Source of the DNA: an uncultured Planctomycetaceae bacterium
GTDB lineage: Bacteria; Planctomycetota; Planctomycetia; Planctomycetales; Planctomycetaceae
Assembly (NCBI GenBank): GCA_963815195.1
Contig: CAWFGE010000021.1
Location: 212,609-276,608 of the forward strand
DNA: 64,000 bases
Direction: 5' to 3'
The notes below the pieces were generated by a model, which saw only the letters and a program-made list of their open reading frames with translations, made no database searches and was not told where the DNA came from. A program made the position numbers and the translations under genes. Shown piece by piece: positions 38,366-63,516 of this stretch (positions within the stretch are counted from its first letter, which is position 1; each line of letters begins with the position of its first letter).

Positions 38366-38528
38366 ATGACTGGTCGAAGTAAACCGAATTGAATCGCTTT
38401 TCCGTAAGATCAATAATGTATTTCATGACTTAATTAGTAACACCTTGACTATATATTCAGGAACCGAAGAAAGAAAAACGAACTCAAATGCTTGGCGATC
38501 ACTCATATTGATATAATGTATGCTCTTC

Positions 38529-38842
38529 CTAGAACCCAAACAAGTATTTTTTCTTGTATTCAATCTGTCGGGCATTTTTCATTGAAAACGTAGGATGAGC
38601 AGGGTTTAGTACAATTGTAAACGAACCTTCCATACTCTTGAATCGTTCCTCAGCCTCAATTGAGAGTCCATGCACTCCCTTACCGCTTGGTTTGGTTGGC
38701 ACAACTTTTGTAAATCCCAAACTATCGATCACGTCTTCTCCATCGCCGACCGCCCAAATGAGGGATTTTGCTGTCTTCAGGCCAACCAAAATAAGCCGCC
38801 CACCAGATTTTAAAACCGGAGCCGCAGTCTCAAAAATCCAAG
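38529..38842 (-). pseudogene. AT-rich ORF fragment, 5' end cut at a REP boundary
   Basis: The open frame SWIFETAAPVLK...KKKYLFGF* begins exactly at the REP end. A following ORF (MKYIIDLTEKAIQF..., ATG at 38426) is cut by IS1380. Confidence 0.5.
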
Positions 38843-38987
38843 AGTTCGTGTAGGGCAGGCTCCTGCCTGCCATTTTGGACTCGGTTCATTGGGGGAATTG
38901 AGGAAGGCTCTTGAAAAGACCTCAGTAGCCTGCCATTTTGGACTTGGCTTGGCTGCTTTCATCGAATGAGGAACGTATGGTTGGGCG
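38843..38987 (-). repeat. composite REP module A, distal part
   Basis: Reverse-complement match to ~18021-18180; interrupted at 38988 by IS3. Confidence 0.88.
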
Positions 38988-40613
38988 TGTAACGGCTCAG
39001 TTCGAACTGGAATTTCTGGCTGGTTGGGTTAGTCTATTCTTATGAGAGGACCGACCCATGAGCAACAGCAAACGACGTCATTTTACGCCCGAGCAGAAAG
39101 CCGAGGTTGTCAGGCGGCATCTGTCGGGGAAGGAACCCGTCTCCAAACTCGCTGAGGAGCTTGGGGTGCAGCCGAGCCAGATTCATGCGTGGGTGAACCT
39201 GGTTCTGGCGCAGGCGGAGCGGGCATTCGAGAAGTCTCAGCAGAATGGACGCGCGCGGACGGACAAGGTCAAGGACCGCCGCATCGAACAGCTCGAAGGT
39301 AAGATCGCCGACAAGAACGAAGTGATCGCCGAGTTAATGGAGGCGAACGTTCGCGCAAAAAAAGAGCTTGGGGAACTCTAAAAGGAGGCTGGGTTCCCCA
39401 CGACACGCGCGACGAAATCGTGGATTACATCACGTATTGGACGGACCGCGCCGAGATTCCCGCCAAAACCCTTTTGGGTTGGTTGGAACTGGGCACGAGC
39501 AAGTACCACTCGTGGAAAGACCGCTACGGAAAAGCCAACGAGCACAACGGGAAGATTCCCCGGGATCATTGGCTGGAGGATTGGGAGAAGGCGGCGATCG
39601 TCGACTATTTTGACCAGCATCCCTTGGAAGGCTATCGCCGGCTGACGTTCATGATGCTCGATGATGACATCGTCGCCACAAGCCCGGCGACGGTGTATCG
39701 CGTGCTCAAAGCGAACCGGCGATTGGACCGCAGGAAGTTCTCGCCGTCCAAGAAAGGCACAGGCTTCGTGCAGCCCTTAAAACCCCACGAACACTGGCAC
39801 ATCGACGTGTCTTACATCAACGTGGAAGGCACGTTTTACTACCTGACCAGCGTCTTGGATGGCTGCAGCCGGGCCATTTTGCACTGGGACCTCAAGGAGT
39901 CGATGACCGAACAGGACGTGGAAGTTATTCTGCAAAAAGCGATCGAGACCTACCCCGGCGAATCGCCGCGGATCATCTCGGACAACGGGCCGCAGTTCAT
40001 CGCGCGGGACTTCAAAGAGTTCATCCGCCTCGTGGGCGCCACACACGTGCGGACCAGTCCGTACTATCCCCAATCGAACGGCAAGATCGAACGTTGGCAC
40101 GGAAGTTTGAAGTCCGAATGTATCCGGCCGAGTTGTCCGGCCAACGTCGAGGAAGCCCGGCGAAAGATTCAAAGCTATGTGGATCATTACAATAATGTGC
40201 GGCTGCATTCGGCCATCGGCTATGTGACGCCCGCCGATAAACTGGCGGGCATCGAACAGGAGATCTTCACCGAACGCGACCGCAAGTTGGAAACCGCCCG
40301 AACGCGCCGTCAGGCCGCCCGGCAATTCGCGCGACAGGAGGTTGCTTGATGACAAGCCGCATGGCACAATCGAATGCGACCTGGGCGGAGGATACGGCTC
40401 TGCTGAGGAGCACCCGGAGCGCCGCCCCAGGGGCCAAGACCGGAGGCGGGATCAAGCCCCTTCCCTTGATCCCGCCCGTTTCGAAAACCCTCCGGGATTG
40501 GCACCAAAGCGAAAAACCTTCGCGGCAGGATGCCGCGAAATCCGCGACAGGAGGTCACCTTCCACTGACTAACACCAACACGCCCAAATTCCACTTACCG
40601 CTGAACCAGGACA
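38988..40613 (+). mobile_element. IS3-family insertion sequence, 1626 bp, 4-bp target duplication GGCG
   Basis: Imperfect IRs TGTAACGGCTCAG...TGGAATTT / AAATTCCA...CTGAACCAGGACA. GGCG at 38984-38987 and 40614-40617. The empty site is visible at ~18010-18030. Confidence 0.95.
39058..40349 (+). CDS. IS3 transposase OrfA (39058-39381) / OrfB joined by programmed -1 frameshift
   Basis: OrfA HTH RRHFTPEQKAEVV; OrfB WHIDVSY, SDNGPQF and NGKIERWH. Slippery A7G at 39357-39364 followed by a TGGGGAAC...GTTCCCCA hairpin. Confidence 0.93.
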
Positions 40614-40786
40614 GGCGGTGCACGCCGGGTGCCACTGGCAGCTTGCCTGCCAGTGTGAATCGGATGAACCAATCGAGTTTTGAAACGCCCCCCGATTCCA
40701 TGCTGCTGGAAAGCACTGGCAACAAGTTGCCAGTGGCACCCGAAAGACTGTTAGCAACAACCCCCGCTGACAGTGCCACCCCGCCG
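40614..40786 (-). repeat. composite REP module A, proximal part
   Basis: Reverse complement of 17852-18024. Confidence 0.9.
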
Positions 40787-41618
40787 TTGAATTCGCCCAG
40801 CCGGTCCTCGAACGTGCCGCGCTTGCGGTAGTGCGACAACACCTCATCCGCCGAGCGTTGCTCCTCGGTCCAGTTTGTGATCAGGAAGAAGTAACGCGGA
40901 AACAGAGCCAGTTGGCCCGTCTTCGCCTCCGGCTTGTCGACGATGACCAGAATCACCCGCTGCGGATGACGCCAGCCCTCGGCTTGGTACTTTCCGAGTT
41001 CGATCACGTCCTCATATCCCCCTTTGGGCGGCCGGCCCGCGGGACGTGTCAGGTAGGGCGCGGCCATCTCTTCCAGCACGTTGTTCTTCTTGATTCTCCC
41101 GCAAAAACGGATGTTTTCGTCGGTCAACTCATCCAACACCGGCCCGGCGATGAAACCCGCATCGATCCGCAGGTCGAAGCTCCACGCCAGTTGCCGGGCC
41201 TTGCCGACCACGTTGCGAATAAACCGCCGGATGCCATTGGCCGTATGCACGCTGCCTTGCCGCAGGATGGCATGAATGAAGCCGTTGCCCAGCCGCTGGC
41301 CTTCCCGCGCGTATCGTAGCCGCCGCCCACCGAGAAACTCGCGACCAGCGGATGATAGACCGTCTCTTTATAGTAACCGTTATAGCGGGCCCCCGGTTGC
41401 TTGCCGTAAACCTGCATCGGGAAACTGTCGATGTCGATGGTCGCATAGCGAATGCGGCGGTCGCTGTCACCGGTGCTTTTGATGTGCCGATGGTTCCAGT
41501 CGAACAAGGCGCTCCGCACGGCCTCGAGATTCGTCTTGCAGTCGGCCAGCCAATCGATGAGCCGGGATTGGGTGGGCTGGCTGGCCAGGCGTTGGTTGAG
41601 CACTTCTTCGCCGGGCCG
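40787..41618 (-). pseudogene. internal fragment of a second, slightly diverged IS1380 transposase
   Basis: Matches ~37127-37959 with substitutions and an indel near 41311. Both ends abut REP modules. Confidence 0.92.
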
Positions 41619-41869
41619 GCGGGTGGCATGCTCATGGCTTGGCATGAGCATGCACTTGGATGAAACTTTGATTTCTTGGAATCGAAAAACACAGGGGCCA
41701 TGCCACATCACGTTCGGAAACCATGCTCATGCAAAGCCACGAGCATGCCACCCTGCCGAGTTTTGAAACGCCCCCCGATTCCATGCTGCTGGAAAGCACT
41801 GGCAACAAGTTGCCAGTAGCACCCAAAAGACTGTTAGCAACAACCCCCGCTGACAGTGCCACCCCGCCG
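41617..41869 (-). repeat. composite REP module B (inverted copy)
   Basis: Reverse complement of 22287-22540 with a few differences. Confidence 0.9.
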
Positions 41870-41995
41870 CACGCCGCCGCTGAAATTGGTGTAGGCGAGG
41901 AACTGACCTAAGAGCGTGCCGCCCGAGGGATCGGCGCCGTCATAGCCCTTGACGTGAGGCGAACCGCCCTCATCCGCCCCGGTCACCAGAAGCTT
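41868..41995 (-). pseudogene. orphan fragment of a planctomycete FG-GAP-like repeat protein
   Basis: Manual translation KLLVTGADEGGSPHVKGYDGADPSGGTLLGQFLAYTNFSGGVR; no start or own stop. Confidence 0.7.
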
Positions 41996-42010
41996 GGTGG
42001 GCAATGCCCA

Positions 42011-43481
42011 CCCACCCCTTTCAACATGTCACTTACCCCTGGATTTGGCCAGAGTTCGCGCGGTGGAGATATGGTGATTCCGTTTGCCGCTCTTTTTTCG
42101 AGGCTGTGGTTTTTTCGGCCCGCGTTTCTTTTTGGGGTAACGCGTCAGGTCGATGCGTTTCGCGAGTCGCACCAACTCGATCGCGAGTTTTCGAGGTGGC
42201 ATGATTTGATAGCCCTCCCAGATTTCCGCGTCCACGGCAATGTTCATGCCCACCGTCGTGGCTGTCACGTCCTGCGTCAGATGATAGTCCGACAGTTGTT
42301 CGTCGATCGTTTCTTCACCGTGAACGGACCGCAGGGCCGCTTTCACGACGGCATAAGTGTTATAGGCCAATACCGCCGTGGCGAAGGCGAACAGCGCAGC
42401 CTTGGGGTAGCCCAGCGTCTCCACTTCGCAACGCAACACCTCGGTCAGAGTTTGGAAGGCTTCTTCAATCGTCCAGCGCTTGCGATACAGAAAAGCCACT
42501 TTTGCGCATTGGCGACTTTGACAGGCAAGTTGGTCAGGATGTGAATCTCAGTGTCACCATTCTCTGTGGGCGTATCCAATTGGATGGTGATCCGCCGGAC
42601 TCGCAACGTCTCTTCACCCTGGGACAGCTCGGCCGACTGCTCGAAAACAACACCCGTTTCGATGCGTCCGATGCGTTTCCGGCGACCGACGAGTTTCCAG
42701 GTGAGTGTCGAAGCGTGTTGGCGAATGACAAAGTAGGCCGACTGCTTGACAATTCCAAACAGAAACTTGGTCGTGCAGAAGTTCCGGTCGGCGATTGTCA
42801 CCGTCTCGGCCCGGATCCATTCCAGAAGCTCCGGCAGAAGCGAACGTTCCTGAGCATGCCCGTCTTCACACGGGAGCAGTTCCGAAATCAGATCCCGCTG
42901 CGCGTCCAGAAGCGCCAAGGTCTGGCCGGGCAAAGGGCCTTCCCGCGTGACGCGCAATTCCGCCAGCCGATGCTCAGTCGCCGCCAAATGATTCCCGTCC
43001 AAATACTGCACGTGATAGCCCGGCAAAAGTTCGCGGCATGCTCCCGGCATGGCATCGATGACTTGAGCCGCGTCCTGGCTCGTTTCCCGGATCATCGTCG
43101 CCGAAAGGCCGGGTTCCAGACGGTTCAACTTGCCATAAAGTGCGGCCGGCGAAACCGCCAGTTGCTCCTTGGCCGCCAAGTACCCGGCATGGACCGACTT
43201 GTGCGTCCGCGTCGCCACGCCCATCATCAGGGCCACCACTTGCGAAAACAGCAATTCTTTCTCGTATTGTCTCTGCGAAGCGTCGGCGAAAATCTCATCC
43301 AGTCGATCCGGCGACACAAGATTCTCGAGCGTCGCTCGAACCATCACTGCCGCTGGACATTCTTCCACAAAACGATCAAGCACAGCGTCGGGCCACATCC
43401 TTGCCGCCTCCATAAGGTTTGATACAACAATCCCTGTAGAAGCGACTTATAGCAAAAAACTAACATGTTGAAAGGGGTGGG
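42011..43481 (-). mobile_element. IS4-family insertion sequence
   Basis: Perfect 19-bp IRs CCCACCCCTTTCAACATGT / ACATGTTGAAAGGGGTGGG; no target duplication. Confidence 0.88.
42029..43413 (-). CDS. IS4-family transposase, frameshift near 42493
   Basis: YLDGNHL, IADRNFC, ILTNLP and LYRKRWTIEEAF (Y-R-E signature). One A is missing in an A-run. Confidence 0.88.
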
Positions 43482-46037
43482 TTCTGGGGGGCCATCGTCA
43501 TCAATCGCCGCCGCTGTTCGATCTCGTCGCGAAACGATTGCTCGGCTTCGCTGGTCCGACCGGCCGTCTTCAATAGGTTCGCATAGGTTCGCCGGCCCAC
43601 CGCCAACGCCAAGGTGAGATCTTCCCGCTCCGGATCTTCTTGAGCCAATTCTTCCTGGTGCGTCAGAAACTCCATGAAGGGGTCCTCGAAATTCTCTTTC
43701 TGAATGTCGCCCCCTTTGAGAACGGCGAGAAGGTTGAGGGCATGCGCCAAATCCTCCCGGTAACTCGTAATCTCGGGCTCGGCATCCACCAAGACCTTCA
43801 AGTCCTCAATCGCGAGTTTATAGAGTTTCTCCGCCTCGTCCGTTTGTCCGGACAGCGAACGGATCAGACCCAACTCGTGCCGGCAAACGGCCAGTTGCCG
43901 ACGCAATTCCGACCGGTCCGCAACAGGCTTGTCCAGCAGTTTTTCCATAGCATCCTTCGCACGGAGCAGTTCCGGTTCCGCATCTTTGTTTCGGCCGTCT
44001 TGCAACAGGGATCGGCCCAATTCCATCCGCGTGGAAACCCTTTGGACTTGCCAGTCCAGGTTATCGGGCACCAAGGCCGAAAGTTCCGACCAGATTTCCA
44101 CAGCCCGCCGCATCGATTCGATGGCCAGAGCATGCTGATTCAATTGACGTTGAATCAAGCCCACACGGGCGGCGGCGTTCGCCAGCGCGATGCGTGTCTC
44201 TACGTCCGTTCCCTTTTGATTGGAGAACGACTCATAAAACGGCAACGCATTGAGTAAGAACTGACGATCCGCCGCATCCAGTTCGGACTTCGTCGCCAGA
44301 CTCTCCCGAGCGAATTGGAGGTAGACTTCATCCAAAGCCTCGATCCCAAGTTTGACCATGGCCGCCAATTCCCGGCTTTGAGTTTCCGCCTGCTCCTTGG
44401 CTTGTTCCGCGTTGGTTTGTGCCTGTTTGGCCTTTGTCTCGGAAGTTTGGGCGTTCTGTTTGTCCTTCACGGATTGATTCGCCAACTCCCGAAACGAGTT
44501 CGCTACAATCGCCGAACCCACCGCCGCCACGACCAGTAGCACTGCGATCGTCGATGTCAAGCCGGCGATCGCCGGGTTTCGTTTGCACCAGCGACCGAAG
44601 CGGACCGCGAGCGAAGTTCGCCGGGCCTGGATCGGTTCATCATGCAGGAAACGCTCAAGATCCTCGGCAAGTTCTCTGGCCGTTTGGTAGCGGTGGCCAG
44701 GATCGGGATCGATTGCTTTGTGGATGATCGTGACGAGATCCCTAGGAATCGACGGATCCACAGTCCGCAGACGTTCAGGAGTTTGGGTCGTCACTTGTTT
44801 TATTAGTTTATTCCGATCACGCTCATCGAAGGCCGGTTTCAGCGCCAACATTTCGTAGAGCGTCAATCCCAACGAATACAGATCACTTCGCTTATCCGTC
44901 TGACCTTCAAACTGTTCCGGGGCCATGTAACGCAGCGTGCCCAGCAGGTCGCCGGTTTTGGTGAGGTCCTGCTGATCCGTGGATTTGGCCAAACCGAAGT
45001 CCGTAATCCAAAGAGTTCCGCCTGTGTCTAAGAGCAAGTTTCCTGGCTTGATGTCTCGATGAATGATTCCCTGATCGTGGGCATATTGCAGAGCCTCGCC
45101 CGCTTGCATCCCCATCCGTGCCACGCTCTCCCAATAGACTCGAAGGGGATTTTTATGCGAGTCAACATTCTTTTGTCCCGGAAAAACAAATGACCCAACC
45201 TCGCCCGTCTCCGACAACTGGCCCACCGCGGTATCGCGCATCAAATCTTCCGACGCATTCGATTCCTGATCCGCACCAGGTGGCGGATCAATGACTGTGG
45301 TTCCGCAGGCGGGCTGTCCGGCAGAATCGTGGGGATGGATCCAACTGGAATCGGAGCCGGGCAAGACTTGGTTGATAAACTGACCGCTCAACAAAGACTG
45401 TGCGACCGCGATCGCGGAGACCTCGCCGCCCCGTTTGGCTCGTGGACCGACCAAGACAGACCCCGGTTCGGCTTGCAGCGGATTCTCTTGCCGAGATTTC
45501 GCGGAGGCGTTTGACTTCCAAGAGCACCTGATCCAGGCCCAAGCCCTGGATGAATTGCATGACGTAATAGTGCACGCCTTCCTGCTCGCCCACACCGAAC
45601 ACCGGAACGATATTTGTATGGTGCAACCGTGCGGCGGCTTTTGCTTCCCGGACGAATCGTTTCTTGTATTGGGAGTCGAGCAGCGTCTGCTTGGGAAGAA
45701 CCTTCAGAGCCACCCTCCGGCCCAGCGAGACCTGCTCCGCTTCATAGACGATTCCCATGCCGCCCCGGCCAACTTCCCGGATAATGCGAAAGTCTCCCAA
45801 CTGTTTGAACGCGGGGACATCGTCCGTTTCGTCGCTTGGCAAATCGTTCTGTTGAATTGCATGGTCGACTTGTTCCATCATCACAAGTGCGGGAAACAGA
45901 TCGCGAATTTCGTCTGCCAAGTCCGGGTAATCGGCCACATATTCCGAAATGGACGGCCGTTTGCCCTCACGAATCTGGGCAGCAAACTCTTCGGCCAGTA
46001 GATCCAGCCGGGATTGAGGTGATTGTGAATCGCTCAT
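43482..46037 (-). pseudogene. Ser/Thr kinase with TM helix and TPR-like repeats; frameshift near 45480 and C-terminus cut by IS4
   Basis: ORF 45288..46037 has VGRGGMGIVY, VALKVL and HTNIVPV. ORF 43460..45595 has HRDIKPGN, TDFGLAK, GTLRYMAPE and helical repeats, and its reading frame runs into the IS4 IR. Confidence 0.85.
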
Positions 46038-46157: not shown

Positions 46158-49100
46158 TTAGTGGTTCGCAACGAGAAGGAGCTGGTCGAACAATTCGTCT
46201 TCCAGATTCGCGAAAAGTGAATCTCGAGGGTTTCCGTCCTCGTTTTCGAACACAACAAATTCTAGCATCTTCTCCTCGGGGATCTCATCTCCCAGTTCAT
46301 CGGGCGGAGAGGTGGCTGCCAAACTCAGTCGCTCGATTTGGGGGCTGATTGGAATGCGGACAAGTTCCTCTCGATTTGCAGACTCACTTGGTACAACGGT
46401 CGAGTCGCCGACCAACACAACGAAGGTCTCAGATGGAACATCCAACTTCGAGGTCAGCATTTCCTCCTCGCTCGCCGCAGAGACTTCCGATAAGTTGTCG
46501 GCTGCGTTTGTCGCAGTGGCAACGATTTCACCAGCTTGGGCATCCACAACTTGAGTGTTGAAGCCCGGGGTCCCGAAGTTATCTGAGGGGCCATAGGAAA
46601 AGTGAAGGCGATCAAATTCCAAGGCGAGCCAGTCACTTTGCGAATCGGCGGTCTGGAAGGAGGCCACGCGCACTTGGTCGAGTGAAATTTGGAAAACCTC
46701 CAGTGGCATAGAATCGCGGATAGCGACGAGATCCACGACTGAAAACACGAGTCCCTGAGCAACCGCTGCAAACAGTTGGGGCGATGCTTGGCTGGCGTCC
46801 GTTTGAAAGGTCAGGAGCGAACCCACGGGATCGGTACTGTTTGCAGGATGGGCAAATTGGAAGGCAAACGAGTCGAGCTCGATCCAATCGGCATATCCCT
46901 TTCGCGTCGAGTCGCCCGTCACACCCGGCAGATGCACGAGCAATGTCACATCCGATGGCAGAAGGAGTTCGGGCAATAGTGGCGGCCCCACATCGATCAG
47001 CTCGGTATCCGTCGATTCCAGATTCCAGGCCACCGTTATTGGTGGCAGTGGCCCTCCTTTGATTAACTCGGGAGTCCAGGTAAATGCCAGTTCATTGAAG
47101 GCGATGGAAAACCCATCAGTCCACCCCGAATCGGTGCTATAGGAAGTGATGGTGGCTCCGTTCAAGACCCAAGTGGCCACCTCGTGGGGGCCGGCTTTGT
47201 CGATGTGGACGGTCGCAATTCGAATCGGATCCCCCTCCGAGAAGACTCGTCCATCCAGCACGGCTTCGAGCAGTTGCGGCGAAGCGATGTCGGTGTCCGT
47301 CAAGAATTGAAATGCCGTGGCGTATGAGTTGCTGAGTGTCCCTTGGCGAGTGCGGAGCGCTGAAAAGCGGGCCATATCGACTTCGATCCACCCGGCGTAG
47401 CCGACCAGTTGCGAAGATCCCACAATGCCCGGAATCTGCACCAAGACGCGGAAATTTTCGGGGATCTCCGGCACCGGAGGCGTTAGTTCGTCGGTAACAA
47501 AAATCGCTTCTTGGAGAGATCGATCCCATCGGGCTGACACGGGAATCAATACACCGCTCTTGGCCGCCCGCCGATAGTAGGTATATTCCAGCGAGGCAAA
47601 CGTCAGCGAAAACGCATCGCCCAGGCCGCTTTCGGTCGCGAAGCCCGCGATCTGCCCATCGCTGAACGACCAACGGCTAAGCACCGTCACCTTCGATCCA
47701 CCTGTTTGCTTCACCGCGACGAGTTGAACGCCTTTGATCAATTCCCCGGTCGTCAGTCGCCTGAGGATTTCCGGTGATGCGTTGCTCGAATGGGCGTTAA
47801 ACCGGAAGGGGTAAGGCGTGGGCGGGGAATCCAGCGCGAACGAACGGGACAACTCGAATTGGAAGGAGTCCACGGGAATCCAACCGCTGTATCCGACCCA
47901 GTTGGACGAACCTGTGATTCCCGGAATGTTGACCAACAGCACGACCCCGTCCGCAAGCGTCGGTTCCTCGGGAAGATCGAGCGGAGCATCGTTCACCGCG
48001 CCCCCGTTCCCCAAATTCAATTCCCCCGTGATCGGGGGAAGCGTGGTTTTTCCATCAGGTGGAAGGAACTGTGATTGAACCGACTCGAATCCCAGCGTGA
48101 AGCTGTCCAGCACGGCACTCGCGGTGGCGAAGTGTCCGAGCATCGCGCCATTGAGCGACCAGCGGGCGAATTCGTTCAGCGTGCCTTTCAGTGGGCTTGT
48201 GAGTGCCAACTCAACCGGTTCATTCAAAGTTTCGCCGGTCACGAGCAATTCAAAAAGTTTGGGAGACGCGATGTCGGTGGACGTCGTGAATCGAAAGCTC
48301 GACGCCTCGAGCCCCGACGGCGATTGATCCTCGGGAGAACGTTCGACCGCAAAGCGGAATTCATCAATCGGAATCCAGCCAGCGTAGTCCGTGGTCTGTG
48401 AAGGACCTTCCACGCCGGGAATGTAAAGGAACGTCTCCACCGCGGGCAAATTCTCTGTCGCCTGATCGAGATCAATCGGTGTGATCGCGAACTTCGTGCC
48501 GCTATCGGCCAGGTTCCAGTCCGCCGTCACTTTGTCCATCGTACCATCATCCCTGAAATCGACTGCCGTGTAGTGCACGGCATCGAATGCGAGAGAAAAA
48601 CCATCCACGAGTCCGCTGACGGTTTGATAGGCCACGATTCGACCGTAATCCAGGTTCCAGCTTGCCACTTCCACCGGACCGATTTTGGAATCACGGGTCG
48701 CGACAATCTCGATGGGCGACGTGAAGATGTCGCCATCGGCAAGTGACTGCAGCAAAAGAGACGAAGCACTTCCGGACTGAGCGATAAAATTGAAAGTGGA
48801 CGCCCGGGCTGTTGTTGCTGAACTGATCTCGGGGCCACGCACTCCGAACTCAAAGGAGCTCGCCTCAATCCAATCCGCGTAGTTTTTCTGAGTCGCATCG
48901 CCGGGAATGCCGGGGATATTCACATAGTAATGGAATGTATCGACCGGTGATGGCAACTCGCTGAGGTTGGGAAATGTCTGTGCGACAACGCCACCACTGG
49001 CGGTGACATCCCACGTTCCCACAACGGGCGTGCCCGGAAAGCCCCGCGCGTCCAGGGGAGTAAATGAGTATTGCACGGCATCATACAAGAGCGTGAATTG

Positions 49101-52100
49101 GTCCTGCTGTGCTCCCAGCTCGGCAAAAGAACCCAAAATGGCATCATCCAACGACCAGCGGGCAAACTCAAAAGGCACTCCGTTAATCGTGCTGGAGCCC
49201 ACGAGTTCAATGTGTCCCAACTGTTGGCCTTGAGCGGCTGCCATCAACAACAGTGGGGAGAGGGCACTCGCCTCCGCCGAGAGTTTGAAGGGGAGGCCAA
49301 TGGGCGGACCACCGCTCTCGGGATGTTGGATTGCCGCCAAAAAGGTCTCGACATCAATTTCGGTGCCCGCCAGTTCCGAACTCGCCACACTGACAAGTTG
49401 GACGTCGAGGTTCACAGTCTCGCCGAGTGTCCCTCCGTCGAGTGTTGGAATCTGCAACACAAAAGTATCGGGGCCGCGGTTCCCTTTTCCCGATTTGATT
49501 TGATAAGCGGCCGAGAACTCCGAGGTGTCGGCGAAGACCAATGGCGTCGCGGGATCGCCATCGTTATCGATGAGTCGCGTGGCGGTCGCGGTGATCCATT
49601 CGCCGCCGTAAGTAGTCGCCGGCAGAGAGAGTTTGAAATGGGCCACGCCTTCGTCATTGGGGATGACATCCACAATGCCCTGCGTCGAGCCCAGCCAACG
49701 CTTACCCTCGCCGTAGCCCATGGGGTCGGCTGTCGCGTTGGCATAAAAGTCAATCACAAAACTCGCACCCGGCGTGCTGCGAAGAATACCCGTCACTTGC
49801 GTCTCCAACCCCGGCTGCACGTTGGAAATCTCGGGGAAGTTCTGCAGGGTGTTGGCACCCGTGTCTTCATCCGGAAAGATGCCCGCGGCGAGATCGCCTT
49901 TGTCGTTCGGCGTGACACCATCGCCGCCGAGATCGATGCCCAAGCCGCCATTGGCGTAGATGGAATTTCCACGGATGGTATTCCCGACCGCGTTCCCCGT
50001 GACCGAGATCCCGTTCCCCAAGTTGCCTGAGATCAGATTCGCTGCAGGCTCTTCCGTTCCGCCGATCTGCACACCGTTGGCATCTTGGATCAAAATGCCG
50101 GAAGCACCGTTCCCGATGGCACCGTCGCCGTCAATATCGGTGCCGATCAAGTTACCCTGGATTCGAATCTCGGATGCACCTTCGCCGCGAACGAGAATTC
50201 CCTGCGTTGCATTCCCGGAAATCAGGTTGCCGGCTCCGGGAGCGAGACCGCCGATCGTGGCGTCAACGACTTGGCAGCCGGCGCTACCGGTCACTTGAAT
50301 ACCAATGTTGTTCCCCAACGCCTCTCGGCCGTCCGCATTCGTGCCGATGCGGTTCCCCTCCACCCGCGTCGAACGAGTGGCGATCGTCGCGCCCATCGCG
50401 ATTCCAACGCCGTTCCCCGAGATGAGGTTGCCCGCTTCGGGATGTGTACCGCCGATGACAGTATCGGTCGTCGCCAGCAGAATAACACCGACCGAACGGT
50501 TGGCGACAGCCAGCGTTCCGGTCGCGTCGGTGCCGATGTAGTTCCCCTGAATCCATGTCGATTCGGTCCCGGTGACGAAAAGCCCGGCCCTGGTGTTACC
50601 GGAAATCACATTTCGTTCGCCTACGGACATTCCACCGATGAGATTCTCCGCGGCATCACCGGAAACGACAACTCCGTCGAGGTTTTCCACCCTAGTCACG
50701 CCGTCGCTTCCCACACCGATGTAATTTGCAGAAACGTGGTTCTCCCTGGCCAACGGTCCCTCGATCGCGACGCCGGCCGAATTTCCGGAAATTACATTCC
50801 GCGACTCGTCTCCCACGCCGCCAATGAGAAGTTCGCTAGCATTCTCGACTTGCACACCCGAGCCGCCGTTCCCCAACGCTGACGTGCCATCGGCTATAGT
50901 GCCAATGTAGTTACCTTCTACGACGTCGCCCGTGGCTCCATTGAAGAAATAGACGCCGTGAAGGCCGTTGCCCGAGATGATGTTTCGATCGGCGTCGGTC
51001 AATCCGCCAATCGTTCGACCCGTCCCGCTATCGATGGAGATTCCATAGCCCAGGTTGGCCACGGCCGCATTGCCTGAAGCATTTGTGCCCACAAAGTTGC
51101 CCTGGATCACCGTACCTGAAGTGTCGCCAGTGGCCGGATTGCCGCCATAGATGGCGATGCCCGCAAAGCCCAGATTGCCAGAAACGACGTTGTCCAGAAT
51201 ATGCGTATTGGTCGGACCGGGAACAAAGATCCCACTCAAGCGATTCCCGATGGCGTCCGTTCCGCTGGCATTCACACCGATGAAGTTGCCTTGAATGATG
51301 TTGGCATCCGAGAGGCTGCCAAAGATCTCGATCCCTTCACCGAGGTTTCCCGAGATGACGTTGCGGGCCTCGGCAGTCGAGCCGCCGATGAGGCTGCCCA
51401 CCGTATCGTTGATGGAGATCCCCTCACCCAAGTTGGGAACCGCTTGGTCTCCAACGGCGTTGGTTCCAACATAATTCCCCTGGATCACAGTACCGGTCGC
51501 ATCGCCTGTGGCAGGATTGCCGCCATAAATGGCGATTCCTGCAAAGCCGAGATTGCCAGAGACGACGTTGTCCAGAATGTCTGTGTTGGTCGCACCTGGA
51601 ATAAAGATGCCGCTCAATCGATTCCCGATGGCGTCCGTCCCGCTGGCGTTCAAACCGATGTAGTTGCCTTGGATCACATTCTCGTCGGCAAATTCACCAA
51701 TCACCTTAATGCCTTCCCCATCATTGCCGGAGATCACATTGCGGTCGAAATCGCCGGGACCACCGATAAGGTTGCCGCTGGAATCGACAATGCGGATGCC
51801 GTCGCCGACGTTCGCCAAAGCCGACATACCATCGGACGTTGTGCCGATGTAGTTGCCTTGAACGACGTTGGGCAGCGGAATGAACAGAACATCCTCTGGG
51901 AGACCAGGCGGTAAAACGGGCACGTAATCACCAAGAATCTGGATGCCGTTTCCACCGTTCCCGGAAATCACATTGCGAGAACTCTCGGTGGTGCCGCCAA
52001 TCATGTTGCCGATGGAACTCACGATCCGCACGCCGTCGCCGCCGTTGCCACCGTCGTTGATGACATACTCCCAGCCGGCGTTGCTAGTGGGGTCTGCGAA

Positions 52101-55100
52101 ACCGTACTGCAGGTGGTCAATTTCGAGCGTGCTGTTTCCACCGGGATTCCGCAGCACGATTTTCGAAATCCCCCGTGGGTCAATGACGCCGAAGAAGCGA
52201 TCCTCACTGGTTGTGCCCGAGACGGATGCATCGCTGATCTTCACCGGCCCAACGATTCCCAGCGGTTCTCCTGACGGGCCGAACGCCTCGAACAGCGTCG
52301 TGCTGTTCACGTTTCCGTCAGTCCACACGATGCCGACATGCGTGGGAAGGCCACCGAGGACGCTCGCATCGAATTCATACTTGTGGCCGTAGCTGTCTCC
52401 GCCGTCATTCGCGAGGGCCGCGAAACTATGCCCGCTCAGTCCGGAACCATCGATGACACCGTCGTCCGCGTCCACGGAATCGACGTAGCCCCGCTCGGGA
52501 CCGAACACTCCCAGCAGACTTCCGCCCGGCTTGTTGTTCGTGGCAATCACGCCCGGTACGTTCAGGGCGCCATCTTCAAAGTCCTCCAGATAGAATTGCG
52601 AAAAATCGAAGTCCCGGAATGGGCTGTCGTCAAAACTGAGGTAGGGGGTCGGTCCCAGAAGCCGGGGAGCGATCGTCCTCCTGTCGTTTGTGCCGATGGA
52701 GTTGCCGGTCAGCGTGTTGTAATTTCCGCCAACGAAGATGCCATCACCGCTGAATTGCTGGATGTTCAACCCATGGACGAGATTGTTTGACGATGACAGC
52801 ACCAGGCCGTTGGCCAGCATGGCGAGCGACTCGATTTCGGCCGCCGAGAGCGCCTGGTTGTAGATGCCAACTTCGTCAATCACACCATTCCAGGTCCTCG
52901 CGTAGTTGACGGCTCGGAATGGATACGCGCTCGACCCGATTGTCCAAGGCACAAAGGGACTATAGTCGATCGTTTTGGTGAGAGCCAATTCTCCTTCGAG
53001 TTGACCGTTCACATAGAGCTTGAAGGTCGTTCCATCGTATGTGCCGGCGACGTGATGATACTGACCGGGGGCAAATGTATTGGACGAAACAATTCGACCG
53101 CTCTCAGTAAAGACATTCCCGAACCCGAACAGGAACCGGTTCGTTTGCGAGCTATACGACAGTTGCACGGAGACGGTCGTGTTGCCCAATGACGGCGGAA
53201 GGTTCTTGCCTATGATGACGCTGCCGTGGAAGTCGCCGTTGGGGCCCGGACCCTCGGGGCGGACCCAGGCACTCAAAGTGAAGATCTGCTGATCAAGTTC
53301 TTCGGAATCGGGAATCTCGATATAGCCGCCGGGGTCGAATGTCACACCCTGACCGATTTGACCCTCCACAAAGTGTATACCCGACGTGGCCGAGGGTTCG
53401 TTGTCGCCTGCGTCGTCTTCCACTGTCCCGTTGAATCGGTAATGGCTGACCAACCCTGGGAGTTCCGACTGTCCAACTGCGGAACTGCCTTCCAGAACAA
53501 TCTCCGGACCGAAGGGATTCGTATCGCCGGTGAGGTTCTGTTGGGATTGGCCGTTGATGACGATGTCCCCCCGGGTGAGGGCCGGGAGTTGTGTCAGTGG
53601 GCTGATAACGAATACGTCGGGTGTCAATGTCGCTTGAACAAGGTTATCGTTGCCGGCGGGATCGGCATCGTGCGTTCCATACAACACGCTCGAACCATCC
53701 GGACTCATTCTGACAGAGATGCCGGTGTAAGTTCGATTGATTCGAGTGTCGCCGTGCGTCAATTGCTCAAATGTTCCGGACAGAGTGTCGTAGACAAAGG
53801 CCTGATTGATACGCTCTGGGTTTTCACCCGCGAGATCATGACGGGATCCGAACGAGATGTACCGGCCTACATCGTCCATCGAATTCGAAATTTCGGCACC
53901 CAACCCGGTCGTGTCGGTCACTTGATGCACGCCTGCGCCGACGTCGAGATAGAAGAGTTCGATATTGCCATCGGCATTGCCGACCGATGGGTCAAGATCA
54001 TCCACTGATTGAAACGAAACCCGAGTGGCGTCCGCGTTCATGGCGATGTACTCGCCAGAGATATTGAGAGATGTTGTCTGCTGGGTTGTCAGGTCGTAAA
54101 CGTAGAGACCATAGCCGAGATCGTCCGTCGTTGGGGTCAGGTCGGCCGAGTCGGTGAAGACCAATTTGGTGCCAGCCGCGTCGAGGAGAACTAGATCGCA
54201 TTCGCCGTCGGCGCTATCAGTCACCTGCCGGATCGTATCGGTTTTCGCATCGTACAAAAACGCCTCGAGCAACCCATCTGCATTGCCAACGCTCGGATCA
54301 AGATTCTGGTCTGACGTAAAGGCGACAAGCGTCCCATCGCTGCTGATCGACGGCTCAACGTACTTGGATAAGTTTGAACCGTGGTCTGCGGTGGTTTGCG
54401 CGATCTGCGTCACCAATCCAGTCGCCGTGTCCGCCAGGAACAGGACCCAGGCACCTCTTGCGTTTTCAGACAAAAAGGTCACGTGCGACCCGTCGCGGCT
54501 GATGATCGGAACCCACGAATACATTGCGGGATCGCTCAGTTGTGTGATCTGGCCGGTCTCTACGTTGAACAAAAAGATCTGCAAGTTGCCGTTCGGATTT
54601 TCCCCGGTCAAGTCAGCGGCGGAGACGAATGCGATCCGGGATCCATCCACGCTCATTGAGGGCTGATCAATGAAGCTCCCAGGAGCCAGATCAAGGAGAG
54701 GTAACTCATCATGCGACCCGTCAAGATCGATGGCCCCAGGATCCGTTTCCGGAATGGCAAACGTGATCACGGCGAGGCCGTCTTCTGTCCAAGCGTTGGC
54801 GGCTTCGATGGCCGCCCGAAGTGATCCTTCACCGGAATCCAACGTGTTGGTGACCACGAAACTCTTGTACTGTTGTGCGGTGGGATCAATGCCCGTTCCA
54901 ATGAACTCAGGCGCGGTGAAGATCACGTTGCCCTCGGTGTGAAGTCGGGTCTCGCCCCCAGGGTTCTGCAGCTGGAGATACACTTCATCCCCAACCGCAT
55001 CGTCATTGTTCACGATGTCGAGCTCCACGGACGCTTGCTGCGTCTGGTAGTCGATATTCAAGGCCCCTTCGACGTTCGTCTTGGTCACCATCACATCCGC

Positions 55101-58100
55101 ATGGCCGGACTCGCCGCCGAGGATCCGCAGCGTCGCATCCTGCTCAAAAGTGGAATCTTGAAAGATAAAATTGGATATTTCTTGCGCAGCCTCCCGTTCG
55201 TGGTTTACGGTGAGATTGAAATCCCCAGCGAACGCCACACCGTCGATAACATAATTTCCCTCGCTGCCGTGGTAGCTGTAGTTGAGCGAAAGGTCTCGCG
55301 TAAGAGTGTCAGATAGCATGTCATCCCGGCCCACAGTGAGATCCACCCGGGACGCATCGACAAAACTTGTCGTCAAGTCATTATCGTGCCTCACCAGTAG
55401 GTTTCCGGTCCGAAACTCGCCGTAGCTCGGTGTGAGCAACTCCCGGACGGGTTCCAGCAATCCGATCAGAATCGCCGCGGGATCGGGGGCCAGATCGATC
55501 CTTTCAACGCTCTGCGAGTCAATCACCAGACTGCGGAAATCGGGTTCTGGATACTCAACAGCCAGCATGTCATCGCCTCCGCCGCCGTCGGTGAGGAGGG
55601 TCGTCAAATACTGGTCGGCAGAGATGACAAGGTCGCGTCCAATGTCGTCCCGGTTGACCGAATCGATCTGCAAACCACCGTCCGAGAAGGTAGTCACCAA
55701 GAGCAGCTTCGGGGTCGCTGGATCCAATGACGTCCAGCAGTTCGATATTCCTCAAGCTGACGGGCAGAGGCATCAGCATACCCTGATCCAGTGAGACAGG
55801 ACGTGTGATGCTCGCATGATTCTCGACGGTGGGATCACCAACAAATCCCTCTGCGGGAGAGGCCCCCATGGGGCCCGTCATGATGTCGTAACCCAGTCGC
55901 GCCAAAAGGCCACCCGTATAAACCACAAGCAACTCGATCTTGTCGTACCCATCGTCGAAGCTCAGGTTGAAATCGGTTGGTAACGGAGTGCCATCGATGC
56001 CTGTCGCGCCGGCAAAGGAAATTCGATCTTCGGGCCCGAAACCCGAGATTTCGACGGGACTCAACGGCGGCTCGGGTTGCGGACCCGCCAGGAAGGGAGC
56101 GAGCACAATGTTGTTGGGACCCAACGGCGGTTCGGGTTGCGGGCCGGCGGATACCCTGGGAGCCCGTGTGAACGCGGCCCCCCCCAACTCAAGTCGGGTG
56201 TTTCCGGAAACGACGAAATTGAGAGCACTCTCGAGTTGATCGACCTCCATGTCAACGGATGCCCGATTCGGGGCGACGAAAGTCTGGCGGGTACCGACGG
56301 CATCCGTACGAAGTGTTGTATCCGCGGTCACCAGATTCACATTCTTTTGCGGATCGACGATGGTCAGCGATTCGATGCCCCGGGAATTGACCAAGCCGTT
56401 GTCGAAGGTCAACAGGGTGTCGAATTCGTCGAGGAGTTCGATATTCAGCATGTCGGACGAGTTGCCGATCATGCGCACGTGGTCGGTTCCCTCCCCGCCG
56501 CGGATAATGACCTGACGGACACCGGCTTCAAAGATCGCGCCGTCGATTGTGATCTCATCGTCCCCGCCGCCGAGGCTGACCATGTAAGTTTTCGGAATCG
56601 GAGTGCGGATCGTTCGACCGTTGTATGTCGTCTCGATTTGGCCGTAAGCGACACCAATCGTGGCAATATCGGAGCCGTGCGTTAACGTCTGTCGAGTCAA
56701 ATAGTAGCCGAGATAGGTCAGACCGCAGCCAATATTTCCGAAATCGATGCCATCGATCGTGTCGCCACTGGATAACGACACGAGATGAAATCCATTGTCC
56801 GGCGTGGTCTGGACCCAACAGGAGAATGGATCGTCGGGAATGACTTCACGCACCTGGTACTCACCCGGACGGAGCCCTGTAAATTGATAATTGCCATTGC
56901 TGTCCGTTACATCGGTTGGTTCGAGCAGGTCAAATTCGATGGACCAGGAATTGAGAACGCCGCGCGGCAACGGACTGCCGTCGGACATCTCGGCCTCCCA
57001 ATACCAGATCTCGTTCGGGTCGTCGCCGACCAAGGCTTCGAGCGTGACTTCCGGTGCGATTTCCAAAGGAATCGGCTCGAATTCTCCGTAACGCAGATAG
57101 ATGCGGAACTCCGGAGGGAGAATTCCAATATCGTCGAGACTGAAGTCTTGGCTGACTCGGATTCGCTCAATCGTTCCTTGCAATCCGCGGACGAGAACGG
57201 GGAATCGGACTCGGTCGATCAACGGCTCGCCGTCAGCCTGTTCCTCCGGCGAAATTTGCAGCGGCTTGGGAACATCCACCGACGAAAAGCGAGGAGAGGG
57301 ATTGCTATCCAAAACGCCGTTCTCGTTGAGGTCCAGGTAGATCTGCCATCCCTCCAAACCTAGTTCGGTGTCGGGGTCGCGTACGCCGTCCTGATCGCTG
57401 TCGAGGAACTTGACGCCTTGAATACTCGCTGCCTGCGCATTGGCAAAATCCTCGTCCGAGATTTGGTCGCCGCTCATGACCGTCACATCGCGAATTCCGG
57501 AGAAGGGGTTGACTGGGACCACTCCAAATGCCATCAAGTCGGAGGTTGCCTCGGTAATGGAATGGGTCCCTGGGGGCAGGCCCCCAAATCGATAGGCTCC
57601 CTGGCTATCGGTGCGGGTAAACTGTTCGCCGGTGTTGATATCGAGCGTCCAGGAGGCAATGTTGATATCAAACAGAGAGGTGTAGTCTCTGACCTGCAAC
57701 TGCCAGACGCCGTTCGCATCCTGCCCGTCCAGAGTTCCCAGCACCGTTTGTGGTTGATACCTCCCCAAAAAGGGTCCATCATCGAAATAGGAAATGGTCC
57801 GCGTCGCTTCATCATCAAACATGGTGTTGGCGTAGTCATCGACGTCGGTAAAGGAGAAACCGCGCGGGCTCGCAAGTGTGACAACAGTCCCGGAAGGACT
57901 AACCAGTTGCACGTCGAGTCTGACAAATCTCGGGTGCTGAATGTGGACCGTCACATTCACGTCCGTGATCGGTCCTTCGATGCCGGTGACCTCCAATTGG
58001 GAGACCACTACGGATCCTGTTCCTTGGTCAGCAATTGGCGTGTCCGTGGAATTCCATCGCGTGGGCTTTGCATCGAGGACGCCATCGTGGTTCGTATCGA

Positions 58101-61100
58101 TGAAGAAGAGCCAATCTTGATAATTGACTTCACCGGCATCCTGCACGCCGTTGCCGTTGATGTCTTCAAATTTCGTCCCCTGGATGCTGGCGGGAAGCGA
58201 GTTTGCGAAGTCGAGGACTTCCACCCCGCCCCCGGAAAACGAGCTAAAGACCACTTCGCCGACTCCACCCTGGGGCGAGACAGTCAACCAATCGCCGGGT
58301 GAGGGAAGGTCCTGTTGACGCACCGAATAGCGCCCCGGCGGAAGATTCGGGAACTCGTACGTCCCGTCCATCCCGGTTGCGATCGAAGGCTCCTCGCTAT
58401 CGAGCATATTGTTGTGATTGAGGTCGAGGAAAATGGTCACATCCTGAGTCTGGTCCACCCCGGCGTCAAACTTGCGGTCACCGTTCATGTCCTGAAAAGC
58501 TGTGCCTCGAATCGTGCTCGGCTCCACTGTGATGGAGGCGAGTAACGGCTTCACCCACACACCTCGTCCAAACGTGGCGGCGGTGAGTGTATCGGTCTGC
58601 GGTTCGTAGTGCAGATCGGTCACGAGTACGCTGGGAAGCCTCTCACGTCGGAACTCATTCAGTTCCTGATCCCTTACGTCACCGTAGGGATGCCAAATCG
58701 GCCATTCGCCATTTAATTCGCTGGGCTTATTCGTCTCCGGGTTGACGACGGCAAACACGCCGCCGGATTGGGGATCTTTTGGCAGTCCCCCGACCCACAC
58801 GATGTCGGCCCCACTCCGATTCGACATCGTGATGGTCCGGAAGTCCTTCAACTGCAGACTCAACGTCCCCGTGATTTTGTCCCACGATTCTCCCGCATCC
58901 TCAGTCATGAAAACGTTGTTCTCATCAACGACGTAGGCGATCCGCCAGTTATCCGGGTGGACGACGATATCCCGGATCGTGCTGTTATCCGCTGTGCCGT
59001 CTCCGTCCGCATCGATCATCTTCAGATTGAACCCGCCGGCGACAGTTTCGCGCACGAAGACTTGCCCGCTGTTGTCCGTGACATAGGCCACCTCCGGCTT
59101 GGCGACGCCGTCTTCCATGCCTCCATAGGCCATCGCGACCGGGCTGGTCATCGTGGGCGGGATGATGTTCGTCACATAATTGCCGCGGGTGGTACTTTCA
59201 TAGAGGCCATCGATCCCGCCCAACAACAGACGCTCGGAATCAACGCTATTCAAGACAAAGGGAAAGATTCGAAAATCGTCATAGTCCCGGTCGGCCTCCG
59301 TGAGCCCCGAATAATCCCCTTGTCCAGGGTATTCCTCACTTGTCAGCCGAATTCTTTCCGAGCCGACAAATTCATTATTCGAGTTGTAGGTGCGACGGTA
59401 GAAGTAGCGCAGGTTGTTCGCCATTACGTAACGAATGGAGTTCTCTCCGCTATTGTCCACTGCAACCGTGTTGCCATCTCCGCCCAAAACAGATTCCCAC
59501 TGAGCGGGAGTGAGCCCCCTTTCCCTTTGAACGACCCCGTTGTCCTGGGTACCGCCGATCCATTCTTCCACCGTTGAGCCGAGAAGGTCTTGGGCCACGC
59601 TGTAGAATTCCGTGATCCGCAGGCCGTTATTGAGTGACTCCCATCCGCCCTCTTGCAGATTTCTTGCATAGACTCCGCCGTCGTCAGCCTCGAGCAAAAC
59701 AAGCGGATCGTCAGGTGAGGTGCGTGAGAGGAAGACAAGATCGCGCGTATCCGGATGCGGCTGGGGGCTGCCCATAATGCTCACCCATTGATCGTTCTGA
59801 CCCGGGCCGGGGTCGAACTGGACTTTATACCCGCCGGTCGTGCCTCGCAGGTACACGGTGTAAGGATCAATCGGATCCGCGACCATCGCGAAGTGGATCG
59901 ATCCCTGCTCCGACTCGCCGGGATTGGTTTGAACCAGATTGGTTGCTTGACGCCAGTGAGCGCCCTGGTCGGAGGATCGGAACAATGCCCGCAGACGGAC
60001 GCCATCGGTGATTGGATCGCCGTTCTCATCGTTTCCCAATTTCGCGGTGCTCAGCAGGGCCGCGTAGAGGACTCCGCCCTGGCTGCTGCTGTGATAGGCA
60101 AGCTCGATCCGATCGGCTTTGGTCACGTCCTCGTCAGATTCGTCCACGTTGATGTCAGCAAAAGTGACTTGGCCATCGCCGTTCAGGTCACCCACGATGG
60201 CCAGGTCCTTGGAGTCCAGAACCCCATCATTGTTAATATCGATGCCGTCGTTGTCGTTGTCGAATCCATCGTTGCTGAGTGTGAGTTCACCCGAAGTCGG
60301 AAACCACGTCACGCCAGCGTTCGATGATCGGTAAACGCCTTGGCCAACGATCGCCACGAAGAGTTTGCTGGTATCGAGCGGGTCCACGATCAAATGGCTG
60401 GCACCTCCTGAGGGTAAACCAGCGGACACCCACGTCTTGCCGCCATTATCGCTTCGGAAGACGCCCCCAGAGCCACTATTGACGCCATCCCAGGTCGCGG
60501 CCAAAACGACCTGATTGTTTGGCAATGCCCCCTCGGAGAGTGGATTTCCATCAGCGTCGATACCCGTTGGGATGATGTTCTGAATCGTTTGGCCATTAAA
60601 GAATCCAACGTCGATGGTCTCCCAGGATTCGCCGCCATTGACACTGCGAAGAATTCCTCGCCCCTCACCGCCTCGATACCCAGAGGCTGAAGGTCCCAGC
60701 GTCCCCTGTCCCGGCAAAAATGACATTCCCATTCACAGGGCTGATCGCCAGAGCGCTAATGGAAAGGGAGGTCTCATAGTCGGTCAACGGTTCCCAGCGG
60801 CCAATGGTTTCAATCTGAGACACATGCTCGGTCTTCCAGACCCCACCGTTCACCGCCCCCACATAAACCCTCTCGGCGTTGTTCGGGTCCACCGCAATCG
60901 CTTGGACCGCTCCGACGGCATTTCCAAATGACGAGTCGTTCGTGATGGAATTGGGACCGATTTCGAGCCATGTGGTCGCCAATGTAAACAGCAGCGTGCG
61001 GTCCTCTAAGATTTCCGGTTCACGGGGGAAGGCCGTATCCACTTGATGCCCCCTTACGGAACAGACCCGCCGGGTTCGACGAATTCGTTTTCGCGAACCA

Positions 61101-61144
61101 AACAGGCTTTGTTTCAATCCGGAAAGCCAATGGAAAAGCAGCAT
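46158..61144 (-). CDS. giant (~5,000 aa) exported multidomain protein ending in six tandem Hcp-like domains; two frameshifts (~60690, ~55700)
   Basis: Three overlapping same-strand ORFs (60665..61144, 55570..60732, 46158..55727). In order: basic N-terminus with EILEDRTLL, Asp-box/BNR propeller (RSVNGGESW, RSDNGGKTW), SdrD-B-like and P-domain modules, TolB-like propeller, LamG, NVISGN beta-helix repeats, six Hcp-like repeats, acidic tail. Confidence 0.85.
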
Positions 61145-62445: not shown

Positions 62446-62509
62446 GAGATTGCTCCTGATGGATGTTGCTGAACTGGGAATCAATACCGGGGATACAAGA
62501 CACGCGAAA

Positions 62510-63516
62510 CTAGGGGGCAATCAACTTATAGCCGTCGGGGGGCGCTTGGTTGACCAGGCACTCCATCTGCGCCCACGCGGCTTCTTCCTCGATCGTCTGG
62601 TTGGCGTCCTTGCTCTTGTCATGTGGCACCACGACGGCGCAGCAATCGACGGATTCTCCTCCCTCTCCATCCCGTGTCACCGCGACGACCAGATACACGC
62701 GTCCGAACCCGTTGCCGCTCCGATCGGCTCGCAACAGCAAGCCTCCGTTCGCATTGAGGGCGGCGTCGGCCGAATTTTCCGACGGTTCGTTACTGAAAAC
62801 GAGCAGTTCCTGCGTTGGGGCGACACTCAGGCCGACGCTGACCATCTGTTGATCGGGGGGCCACAAATAAGTGCAAGCCGCGGCCTCGACAGGATTAGGC
62901 GTGGCAGGCGTGCCGAGAGTGTTCACACGGACGTGCGAGACCGACCCGTGATCGACCGTCAGCATGAGTTGCCAGTCGGCGTGGTCGGCGGGCGACCCGT
63001 CCGCGGCATAGAATGCGGGTCCGACGATCCGGTAGTCAATGTAGCCGGCGAGAGCGTTTTCCGGTGTCAGGAAGTAGCCATTCGCCGAGATGGCAAGCGT
63101 GTAGGTGCCTGCCTCTTCGAAGGTGTAGTTAAAGTTGCCGTCGTAGAAGCCGATGCCCGGTCCCCGGGCGTGTCGTCAATTTGGGCCAGAACATCTTGAT
63201 TCGAGTCGAACAGCACCATGCCCCCGTCCGCGCGGGTGATTTCCCCGTCGCCGTTGAGGTCGCCGCCGGCGTAAATGCTCTCGTAAATCAGAGCATCGAA
63301 GTTGACCGTCGTGCGGGCGGCAACGTCGAACGTGATCCAGTCGATCGAGGCTTCATCCACCAAACCGTCACCATCAAGGTCGGCAAGAATAAATTCACCG
63401 CTGGTGATGATCGGGGGCTGCGGTGGAGCGGCGAAAAGGGATTGCGCAGGCGGGAGTGCGGCTGCCGCGAGTACGAGTGCCGTACAAAACCATTGGTCGA
63501 ATGCGGAGCGGTTCAT
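62510..63516 (-). CDS. exported protein (PPC/DVUA0089-like N-part, LWPP...LRA.RSG.G.GRVY Ig-like C-part); frameshift near 63165
   Basis: Signal peptide in ORF 63067..63516. After a cccgggg run the alternative frame PGIGFYDGNFNYTFEEAGTYTLAIS runs in frame into ORF 62510..62965. Confidence 0.75.

Follow-up and report, generated by a model that had tools for sequence, protein, structure and literature searches.

The window analysed here, a stretch of 64,000 nucleotides from an uncultured Planctomycetaceae bacterium described as a soil planctomycete (assembly GCA_963815195.1, contig CAWFGE010000021.1), carries a giant gene whose 3' piece, the frame 46158..55727 (-), ends in a tandem array of six domains related to Hcp (TssD), the tube protein of the T6SS (type VI secretion system). 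An earlier note on this DNA, made from the sequence alone, had described this frame as uninterrupted, and it is indeed open throughout, for 3189 aa; it is not the whole gene, however, as this extends upstream through the overlapping frames 55570..60732 (-) and 60665..61144 (-), with a start at 61144 and a product of about 4,990 aa (roughly 0.5 MDa). At 55705 and again at 60685, short-read contigs of run X1, which may be the source sample and most of whose contigs are at least 99% alike, are shorter by a single base (one contig per site, at a depth of 2.5-4.5), so that both frameshifts are probably assembly errors.

The six repeats, numbered from the N-terminal side, occupy 49005..49472, 48510..48935, 48010..48440, 47520..47945, 47020..47453 and 46535..46949, all on the (-) strand, with approximate ends placed from the secondary structure of the model described below, and all their limits, including the starts at 49472, 48935, 48440, 47945, 47453 and 46949, agree within about 15 nt with those first proposed. 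Scanned individually against PF05638 (curated cut-off 23.5 bits), repeats 2-6 score 44-57 bits (46.3, 56.7, 45.3, 44.1 and 52.4 bits, respectively), and repeat 1, which is divergent and carries an insertion, scores 21.7 bits (E 2.6e-4), slightly under the cut-off, so that five of the six pass singly, with 228.5 bits for the whole protein; the proposed Hcp identity is thereby upheld. Against the TssD model TIGR03344 the array reaches 49 bits, under the cut-off of 58.9 that one homologue (L075) exceeds, and a sequence search of solved structures matches it to the Hcp entry 7fcf (E 5e-5). In the 3189-aa frame there are five copies of the start motif (repeats 2-6) and six of the helix motif, the latter all within the array. 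The WxL-type strand attributed to all six repeats lacks its W in repeat 6, and the linkers are about 23-25 aa long, as read from the model secondary structure. The repeats are just 28-32% identical to one another, a sign of an old array, and position for position they are orthologous to the repeats of two relatives, P0004 (87%) and P0005 (45%). The lysine content of the array is low (1.7%).

AlphaFold2, run on the 986-residue array with an alignment of 67 rows whose register was checked, gave a predicted local distance difference test score (pLDDT) of 90.5 and a predicted template modelling score (pTM) of 0.86, the five models lying at 88-90 and the linkers being mostly ordered. The predicted repeats have the beta-barrel plus helix fold of Hcp, and a fold search with single repeats gave matches to solved Hcps with Z scores of 18-19 and root-mean-square deviations (rmsd) of 1.6-1.9; repeat 4 matches Hcp 3v4h at Z 14.0 (rmsd 1.2 over 125 residues), and repeat 6 matches Hcp1 1y12 at Z 18.3 (rmsd 1.8 over 142 residues). 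Repeat 1, whose insertion (residues 16-35) is modelled with low confidence, is still predicted to fold as a tube domain. The two-domain chains of phage tail tubes and of injection hubs assemble as trimers. Repeat pairs 1-2 and 5-6 of the model superpose as units on such chains from the tail tubes of two phages, P74-26 (Z 11.9, 240 residues, rmsd 4.6) and T5 (Z 11.2, 210 residues, rmsd 3.6), suggesting that neighbouring repeats pack as in a tube ring, and the two-domain hub chains 1wru, 8v3w and 9h4p span model residues 1-5 to 955-959 in compact matches of 151-163 aligned residues (rmsd 3.2-3.8), which would need repeats 1 and 6 to lie next to each other in the model. A contact between repeats 6 and 1 would close the ring, and we consider it very likely, on the predicted structure, that the six repeats fold into one closed ring, a covalent single-chain pseudo-hexamer, as the earlier note had suggested. 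The solved chains returned by the fold searches have at most two tube domains each, though a chain with more may exist, and a search of the ESM Atlas gave only single-domain Hcp clusters among the entries listed.

The number of copies points in the same direction. A protein search over 1.84 billion representatives with a six-copy array as the query gave 350 matches, 150 of which are listed; together with the two proteins of the host genome 152 proteins were counted, 96 of them with at least two Hcp domains, and 28 records cut inside an end repeat were left out of the copy-number counts. Among the proteins counted, 54 uncut arrays have at least three copies: 43 have six, 8 have three, and four, five and seven copies are found once each, with no array exceeding seven. 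There are also 14 uncut two-copy records in this set, and where an array is flanked on both sides by at least 60 other residues, it has six copies in 12 cases of 14 and two in the remaining two. Many of the short-array records appear, by eye, to end in frameshifted sequence or to be fragments, while a few two-copy records with signal-like ends may be real. Signal-like N-termini were seen by eye in P0070, P0088 and P0105, with two Hcp domains each, and in P0118, with three plus DUF4114; along with the seven-copy P0097, these are possible 2x3, 3x2 or seven-membered variants. An independent DNA scan of GTDB genomes, requiring only two adjacent motifs, gave 38 loci, of which 22 are without Hcp, one has two single domains, three, rejected as arrays, hold regular T6SS clusters that include three single hcp genes, and 12 are arrays, from Planctomycetota and Alphaproteobacteria by record name. 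All eight of the scan arrays in intact frames have six copies; of the others, the broken L052 sums to six, L053 and L070 are ended by a contig end or a stop, and the frameshifted L047 has three. Six is the fixed copy number of the module, and the enrichment of six raised as a question in the earlier note is supported by both surveys.

The repeats themselves show that six has been arrived at, or kept, through different duplication patterns. Of 52 six-copy arrays (two of which, P0012 and L044, are the same protein), 5 consist of near-identical repeats, 4 alternate in an ABABAB pattern and 43 are evenly diverged. In a repeat tree the six repeats form a clade of their own protein in 25 of 51 arrays, mostly with good support, and for 181 of 306 repeats the closest repeat belongs to the same protein, indicative of repeated amplification or homogenisation; the pattern is compatible with both independent origins and concerted evolution of six-copy arrays. 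The module had been thought of as a planctomycete feature. It is present there but rare: 60 relatives contain no other multi-Hcp frame, nor do the matches listed (150 of 178) from 400 genomes of the phylum. Alphaproteobacteria have the module too. Single array proteins, used as queries for loci, had no match in viral contigs or in genomes, word-index protein searches returned only the protein itself or three proteins, and the array alignment has no conserved stretch usable as a search query.

The host genome possesses a second, unrelated gene of this kind, on contig C18 (L011:5879-10632), a 1228-aa frame with six Hcp matches in which the usual N-terminal Hcp motif is missing and whose repeats form a clade separate from those of the window array. 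This gene, split by a frameshift, is divergent from an ECF sigma-kinase pair. The segment before its array aligns with positions 4-81 in a profile of Big_9 made from four domains of the host genome (E 2e-16), and the array seems to be inserted before the last strand of this immunoglobulin (Ig)-like domain, which would require the array ends to lie close together, as in a ring.

As to the T6SS itself, the host genome (94.6% complete) has no match to the VipB, VgrG-type and TssF models (PF05943, PF05954, PF05947), for which the controls matched, nor to the phage sheath PF04984, with a positive control; PF06841 had no match in the host genome nor in the controls. It also lacks a free single-domain Hcp, as every Hcp match falls in the two six-copy frames, in line with the lack of T6SS genes noted for the window and with the proposal that no free Hcp is needed. 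VipB is present in 2 of the 13 genomes behind the scan loci, 10 of the 12 array carriers (genomes whose completeness is not given) being without a match, and in the two carriers with a T6SS the array is located elsewhere. The arrays are instead fused, in homologues and scan loci, to Big_13, Big_9, cadherin, PKD, Calx-beta, dockerin, SdrD_B, Hint and RTX repeats, in giant proteins of planctomycetes and in RTX/Ig proteins of alphaproteobacteria. The array is C-terminal in the window protein, N-terminal in nine RTX-repeat proteins with C-terminal RTX, and internal or the whole protein elsewhere; four proteins (P0035, L049, L058, L056) are stand-alone six-copy chains with short tails only. Cultured carriers include Novosphingobium aquiterrae and Pirellulaceae SH467. 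The six Hcp-like frames of another genome, G036, were rejected as an array, being separate genes in a T6SS locus. A planctomycete T6SS locus, L080:8436-13864, has six consecutive divergent single Hcp-like genes, possibly a hetero-hexamer set, plus two typical ones on the opposite strand, adjoining vgrG.

The remainder of the giant protein has extracellular repeat and adhesion-type domains in the Pfam scan. The 5' end of the gene, 60665..61144 (-), has a basic N-terminus and a frame change near 60685, and in it a motif similar to the LExRxLL-type signature of planctomycete extracellular proteins was spotted by eye, with no Pfam match (PF07595); the array homologues L044 and P0066 have weak PF07595 matches. 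The middle piece, 55570..60732 (-), encodes a sortilin/BNR-type propeller, SdrD_B and P-proprotein domains. The 3' piece contains a PD40-type propeller, a LamG (concanavalin-like) domain at 52833..53330 (-) (PF13385, E 6e-29), a right-handed beta-helix whose top-scoring part lies at 51282..51812 (-) (PF13229, E 2e-10), an Ig-like domain, the six-Hcp array and an acidic C-terminal tail at 46158..46520 (-), which has no Pfam match and is also present in the relative P0004. The protein is predicted to be exported and located at the surface.

Six linked Hcp domains would, in our model, make one asymmetric ring that is exported on a surface protein of roughly 0.5 MDa and acts extracellularly without a T6SS. 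Hcp functions as a hexamer, and export pathways transport unfolded chains; six linked domains exported unfolded could thus close a ring at any concentration, linkage making assembly independent of concentration after export, and each giant chain would bear one ring. The ring may then be a protein-binding module that catches a partner in its lumen or on its faces, or one that pairs with other rings, linking cells or matrix, and this is the least certain step. Hcp rings do bind proteins, since solved Hcp-effector complexes (9qpe and 9vnd) are among the fold-search matches, and once a ring is granted we find a role in binding or self-association somewhat favoured. Taken together, we put the probability at about 55% that the array is a covalent pseudo-hexameric ring serving as an extracellular binding or self-association module independently of any T6SS. 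Of the further roles suggested in the earlier note, a membrane pore found no support, and a stacking base or an anchor is conceivable.

A number of observations weigh against this reading. Ring closure depends on the hub-chain matches, which are weak (Z 5.1-5.4) and possibly reflect a common arrangement only, and a single-sequence AlphaFold2 model failed (pLDDT 34.6). The segment after the C18 array matches Big_9 positions 83-99 at just E 0.066 (the best among 17 control slices), and the export motif of the giant gene was recognised by eye only. The six-copy query and the listing of 150 of 350 matches may favour six-copy proteins, and exceptions exist, in P0097, in the three-, four-, five- and two-copy uncut records counted above and in L047. 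Kin, moreover, share copy number by descent, and ring closure is a prediction, so that the domains might be beads on a string, inert spacers whose number is an inherited accident; the high pTM and the keeping of six after re-amplification or homogenisation in many lineages speak against this reading, which we hold to be very improbable. About equally improbable is that the array co-assembles with or caps the tube of a T6SS or of an extracellular contractile injection system (eCIS), with the giant protein as its cargo, as the earlier note had allowed. The Hcp fold is genuine, a sheath gene is present in 2 of the 12 array-bearing genomes and Hcp-toxin fusions are known (PMC3482391), but there is no sheath match in the host genome or in 10 of the 12 carriers, the host has no match to TssF, VgrG-type proteins or free Hcp, the array lies away from the T6SS in both T6SS-bearing genomes, and the array proteins bear other export signatures.

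Other explanations would retain the ring and change its function. The rings might pile up, head to tail, as nanotubes or fibres outside the cell that show the fused Ig, RTX or lectin domains, a sheath-free tube from one gene. Stacking through an extended loop is described for one Hcp (PMC4650826), several arrays retain the glycine-rich loop motif, two-domain tail-tube chains form tubes (by the titles of their structures), and the stand-alone six-copy proteins would suit such a role. The window array, however, has no match to the motif, its loop is apparently shorter, by 5-8 residues, than that of the L085 T6SS Hcp (a by-eye count), and a passenger of 4,000 residues would crowd a tube, making stacking unlikely here. 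A little less likely still is a decoy or sponge, a surface ring that imitates the tube of a T6SS or of a phage and so captures effectors, spikes or tail parts as they arrive. The lack of a T6SS sheath match in most carriers, the patchiness of the module and the fast divergence of its repeats resemble conflict genes, Hcp lumens bind effectors (by structure titles), and the methyltransferase family that neighbours many arrays (see below) is present in T6SS operons too; patchiness is nevertheless usual for giant adhesin genes. Hcp, besides, is loaded with effectors inside the attacker's cytoplasm. The ring might also be a retention plug, too wide for an outer-membrane channel, that keeps the adhesin tethered by folding at the inner side. 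LapA-type adhesins are tethered by N-terminal retention modules, and the nine RTX proteins with N-terminal arrays have a comparable layout, but with the array C-terminal in the window protein, internal or the whole protein elsewhere, and inside an Ig domain in the C18 gene, a plug is improbable.

Support for a surface location of the arrays, and a lead, comes from outside the window locus. A PF10119 methyltransferase gene, mostly with PF21782, adjoins 7 of the 12 array loci. This family includes the Rickettsia PKMT1/2 and the Acinetobacter KmtA, an enzyme acting on the adhesin AtaA, whose lysines it methylates (PMC11784438); no Hcp substrate is reported for these outer-membrane protein lysine methyltransferases in the parts of this source that were consulted. 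The window array is not adjoined by such a gene, and the only copy in the host genome (contig C10, 447994-464830; L079:8995-19901) lies elsewhere. Downstream of it is the gene for an exported protein of 4261 aa, in which Big_9/cadherin repeats and a long stalk rich in Ser/Thr are accompanied, as judged by eye, by a Hint domain whose C-terminal tip is like that of polymorphic toxins. The methyltransferase gene is also found inside the T6SS cluster L085:1236-6738, in the order hcp-impE-methyltransferase-tssE-tssF, and directly adjoins tssG in 5 of 30 sampled alphaproteobacterial loci (L102, L104, L109, L110, L118), the others adjoining unrelated genes, and the gene order suggests lysine methylation of T6SS parts. 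A methyltransferase specific for Hcp is only partly upheld, as just one of 60 loci sampled without regard to Hcp, with flanks of 0-1 kb examined, has an Hcp-like sequence (the known G069 locus). In two alphaproteobacterial genomes short genes with double-glycine-type leaders (by eye) flank the PF10119 gene (L087:6298-6486, 6561-6767, 6846-7034 and 9877-10086 (+), and 10252-10440 (-); L086:6984-7229 (+)), and their cores are pieces of Hcp (the N-terminal strand, the loop-helix and the C-terminal strand), possibly a split-Hcp system that is exported or resembles ribosomally synthesised and post-translationally modified peptides. Lys/Asp-rich repetitive proteins with a common short C-terminal motif, likely substrates, adjoin methyltransferases of this family in alphaproteobacterial genomes (L091:6794-7735, L103, L107, L113). 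More broadly, we offer as a tentative picture, at somewhat less than even odds, that Hcp has an extracellular role apart from injection systems, being exported by other routes in at least two phyla in the form of self-closing six-domain rings, adhesin-fused or stand-alone (possibly also as 2x3 and 3x2 assemblies and as Hcp-fragment peptides with leaders). In many cases a lysine methyltransferase would be dedicated to these proteins, which would build a ring on the surface, or a nanotube that has no sheath, to bind partners or to defend the cell.

The neighbourhood of the giant gene appears planctomycete-like, with PSCyt/PSD genes and ECF-kinase pairs (Pfam) in the window. Downstream lies a Ser/Thr kinase gene with tetratricopeptide repeats, 43460..46037 (-) (Pfam), split in the assembly, probably in error, at 45499, where an X1 contig is longer by two bases. 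Just downstream of the giant gene and the kinase, at 36759-43413, is a cluster of whole and fragmentary transposase genes (DDE_Tnp_1_4, rve, DDE_Tnp_1), which fits the patchy occurrence of the locus. Upstream, 61306-62520 encodes an exported-looking repeat protein with a weak DUF3466 match. The giant gene is absent from all three same-genus genomes, one of which retains this upstream gene at 88% DNA identity, followed by different genes.

Compared to known systems, the array is like the T6SS tube protein Hcp/TssD (PF05638, TIGR03344; 1y12, 3eaa, 4tv4) in sequence family, repeat fold and predicted six-membered ring, and unlike it in having six diverged domains per chain, on a predicted surface protein, without the glycine-rich loop motif and with no T6SS genes found in the host genome. 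The two-domain tail-tube proteins (T5 pb6, P74-26, SH-Ab15497) and the gp27/gp44/VgrG-type hubs also fuse tube domains into pseudo-sixfold rings on which adjacent array repeats superpose, but have two domains per chain, not six, and belong to phage tails or injection machines, not adhesins. Natural Hcp-toxin fusions (PMC3482391) and engineered Hcp1 scaffolds (4ksr, 7o42) demonstrate that Hcp accepts fused domains, with, however, a single Hcp per chain, T6SS-delivered or artificial. The host architecture, with propellers, LamG, beta-helix, SdrD_B, Big, cadherin, dockerin and RTX domains, is that of giant planctomycete exoproteins and of RTX/Ig adhesins of the type I secretion system, for which the literature searched describes no Hcp module. 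Likewise, and as the earlier note supposed, no description of a natural single-chain six-Hcp ring was found in the literature searched, which leaves most subscription papers and supplements (e.g., the architecture tables of PMC3482391) outside. The Hcp domain is already known; a natural single-chain ring in surface proteins appears to be new.

Overall, Hcp is treated as a hallmark of the T6SS, and databases are giving array-type proteins the names of T6SS components; a single-chain ring kept at six copies in many lineages with no T6SS sheath match would mean that the fold has a second selected function and that Hcp matches over-call the T6SS. It would also provide an Hcp ring of natural origin that is asymmetric and position-addressable, a help in studies of ring stacking and lumen binding, and the cultured carriers make the function of the array directly testable.

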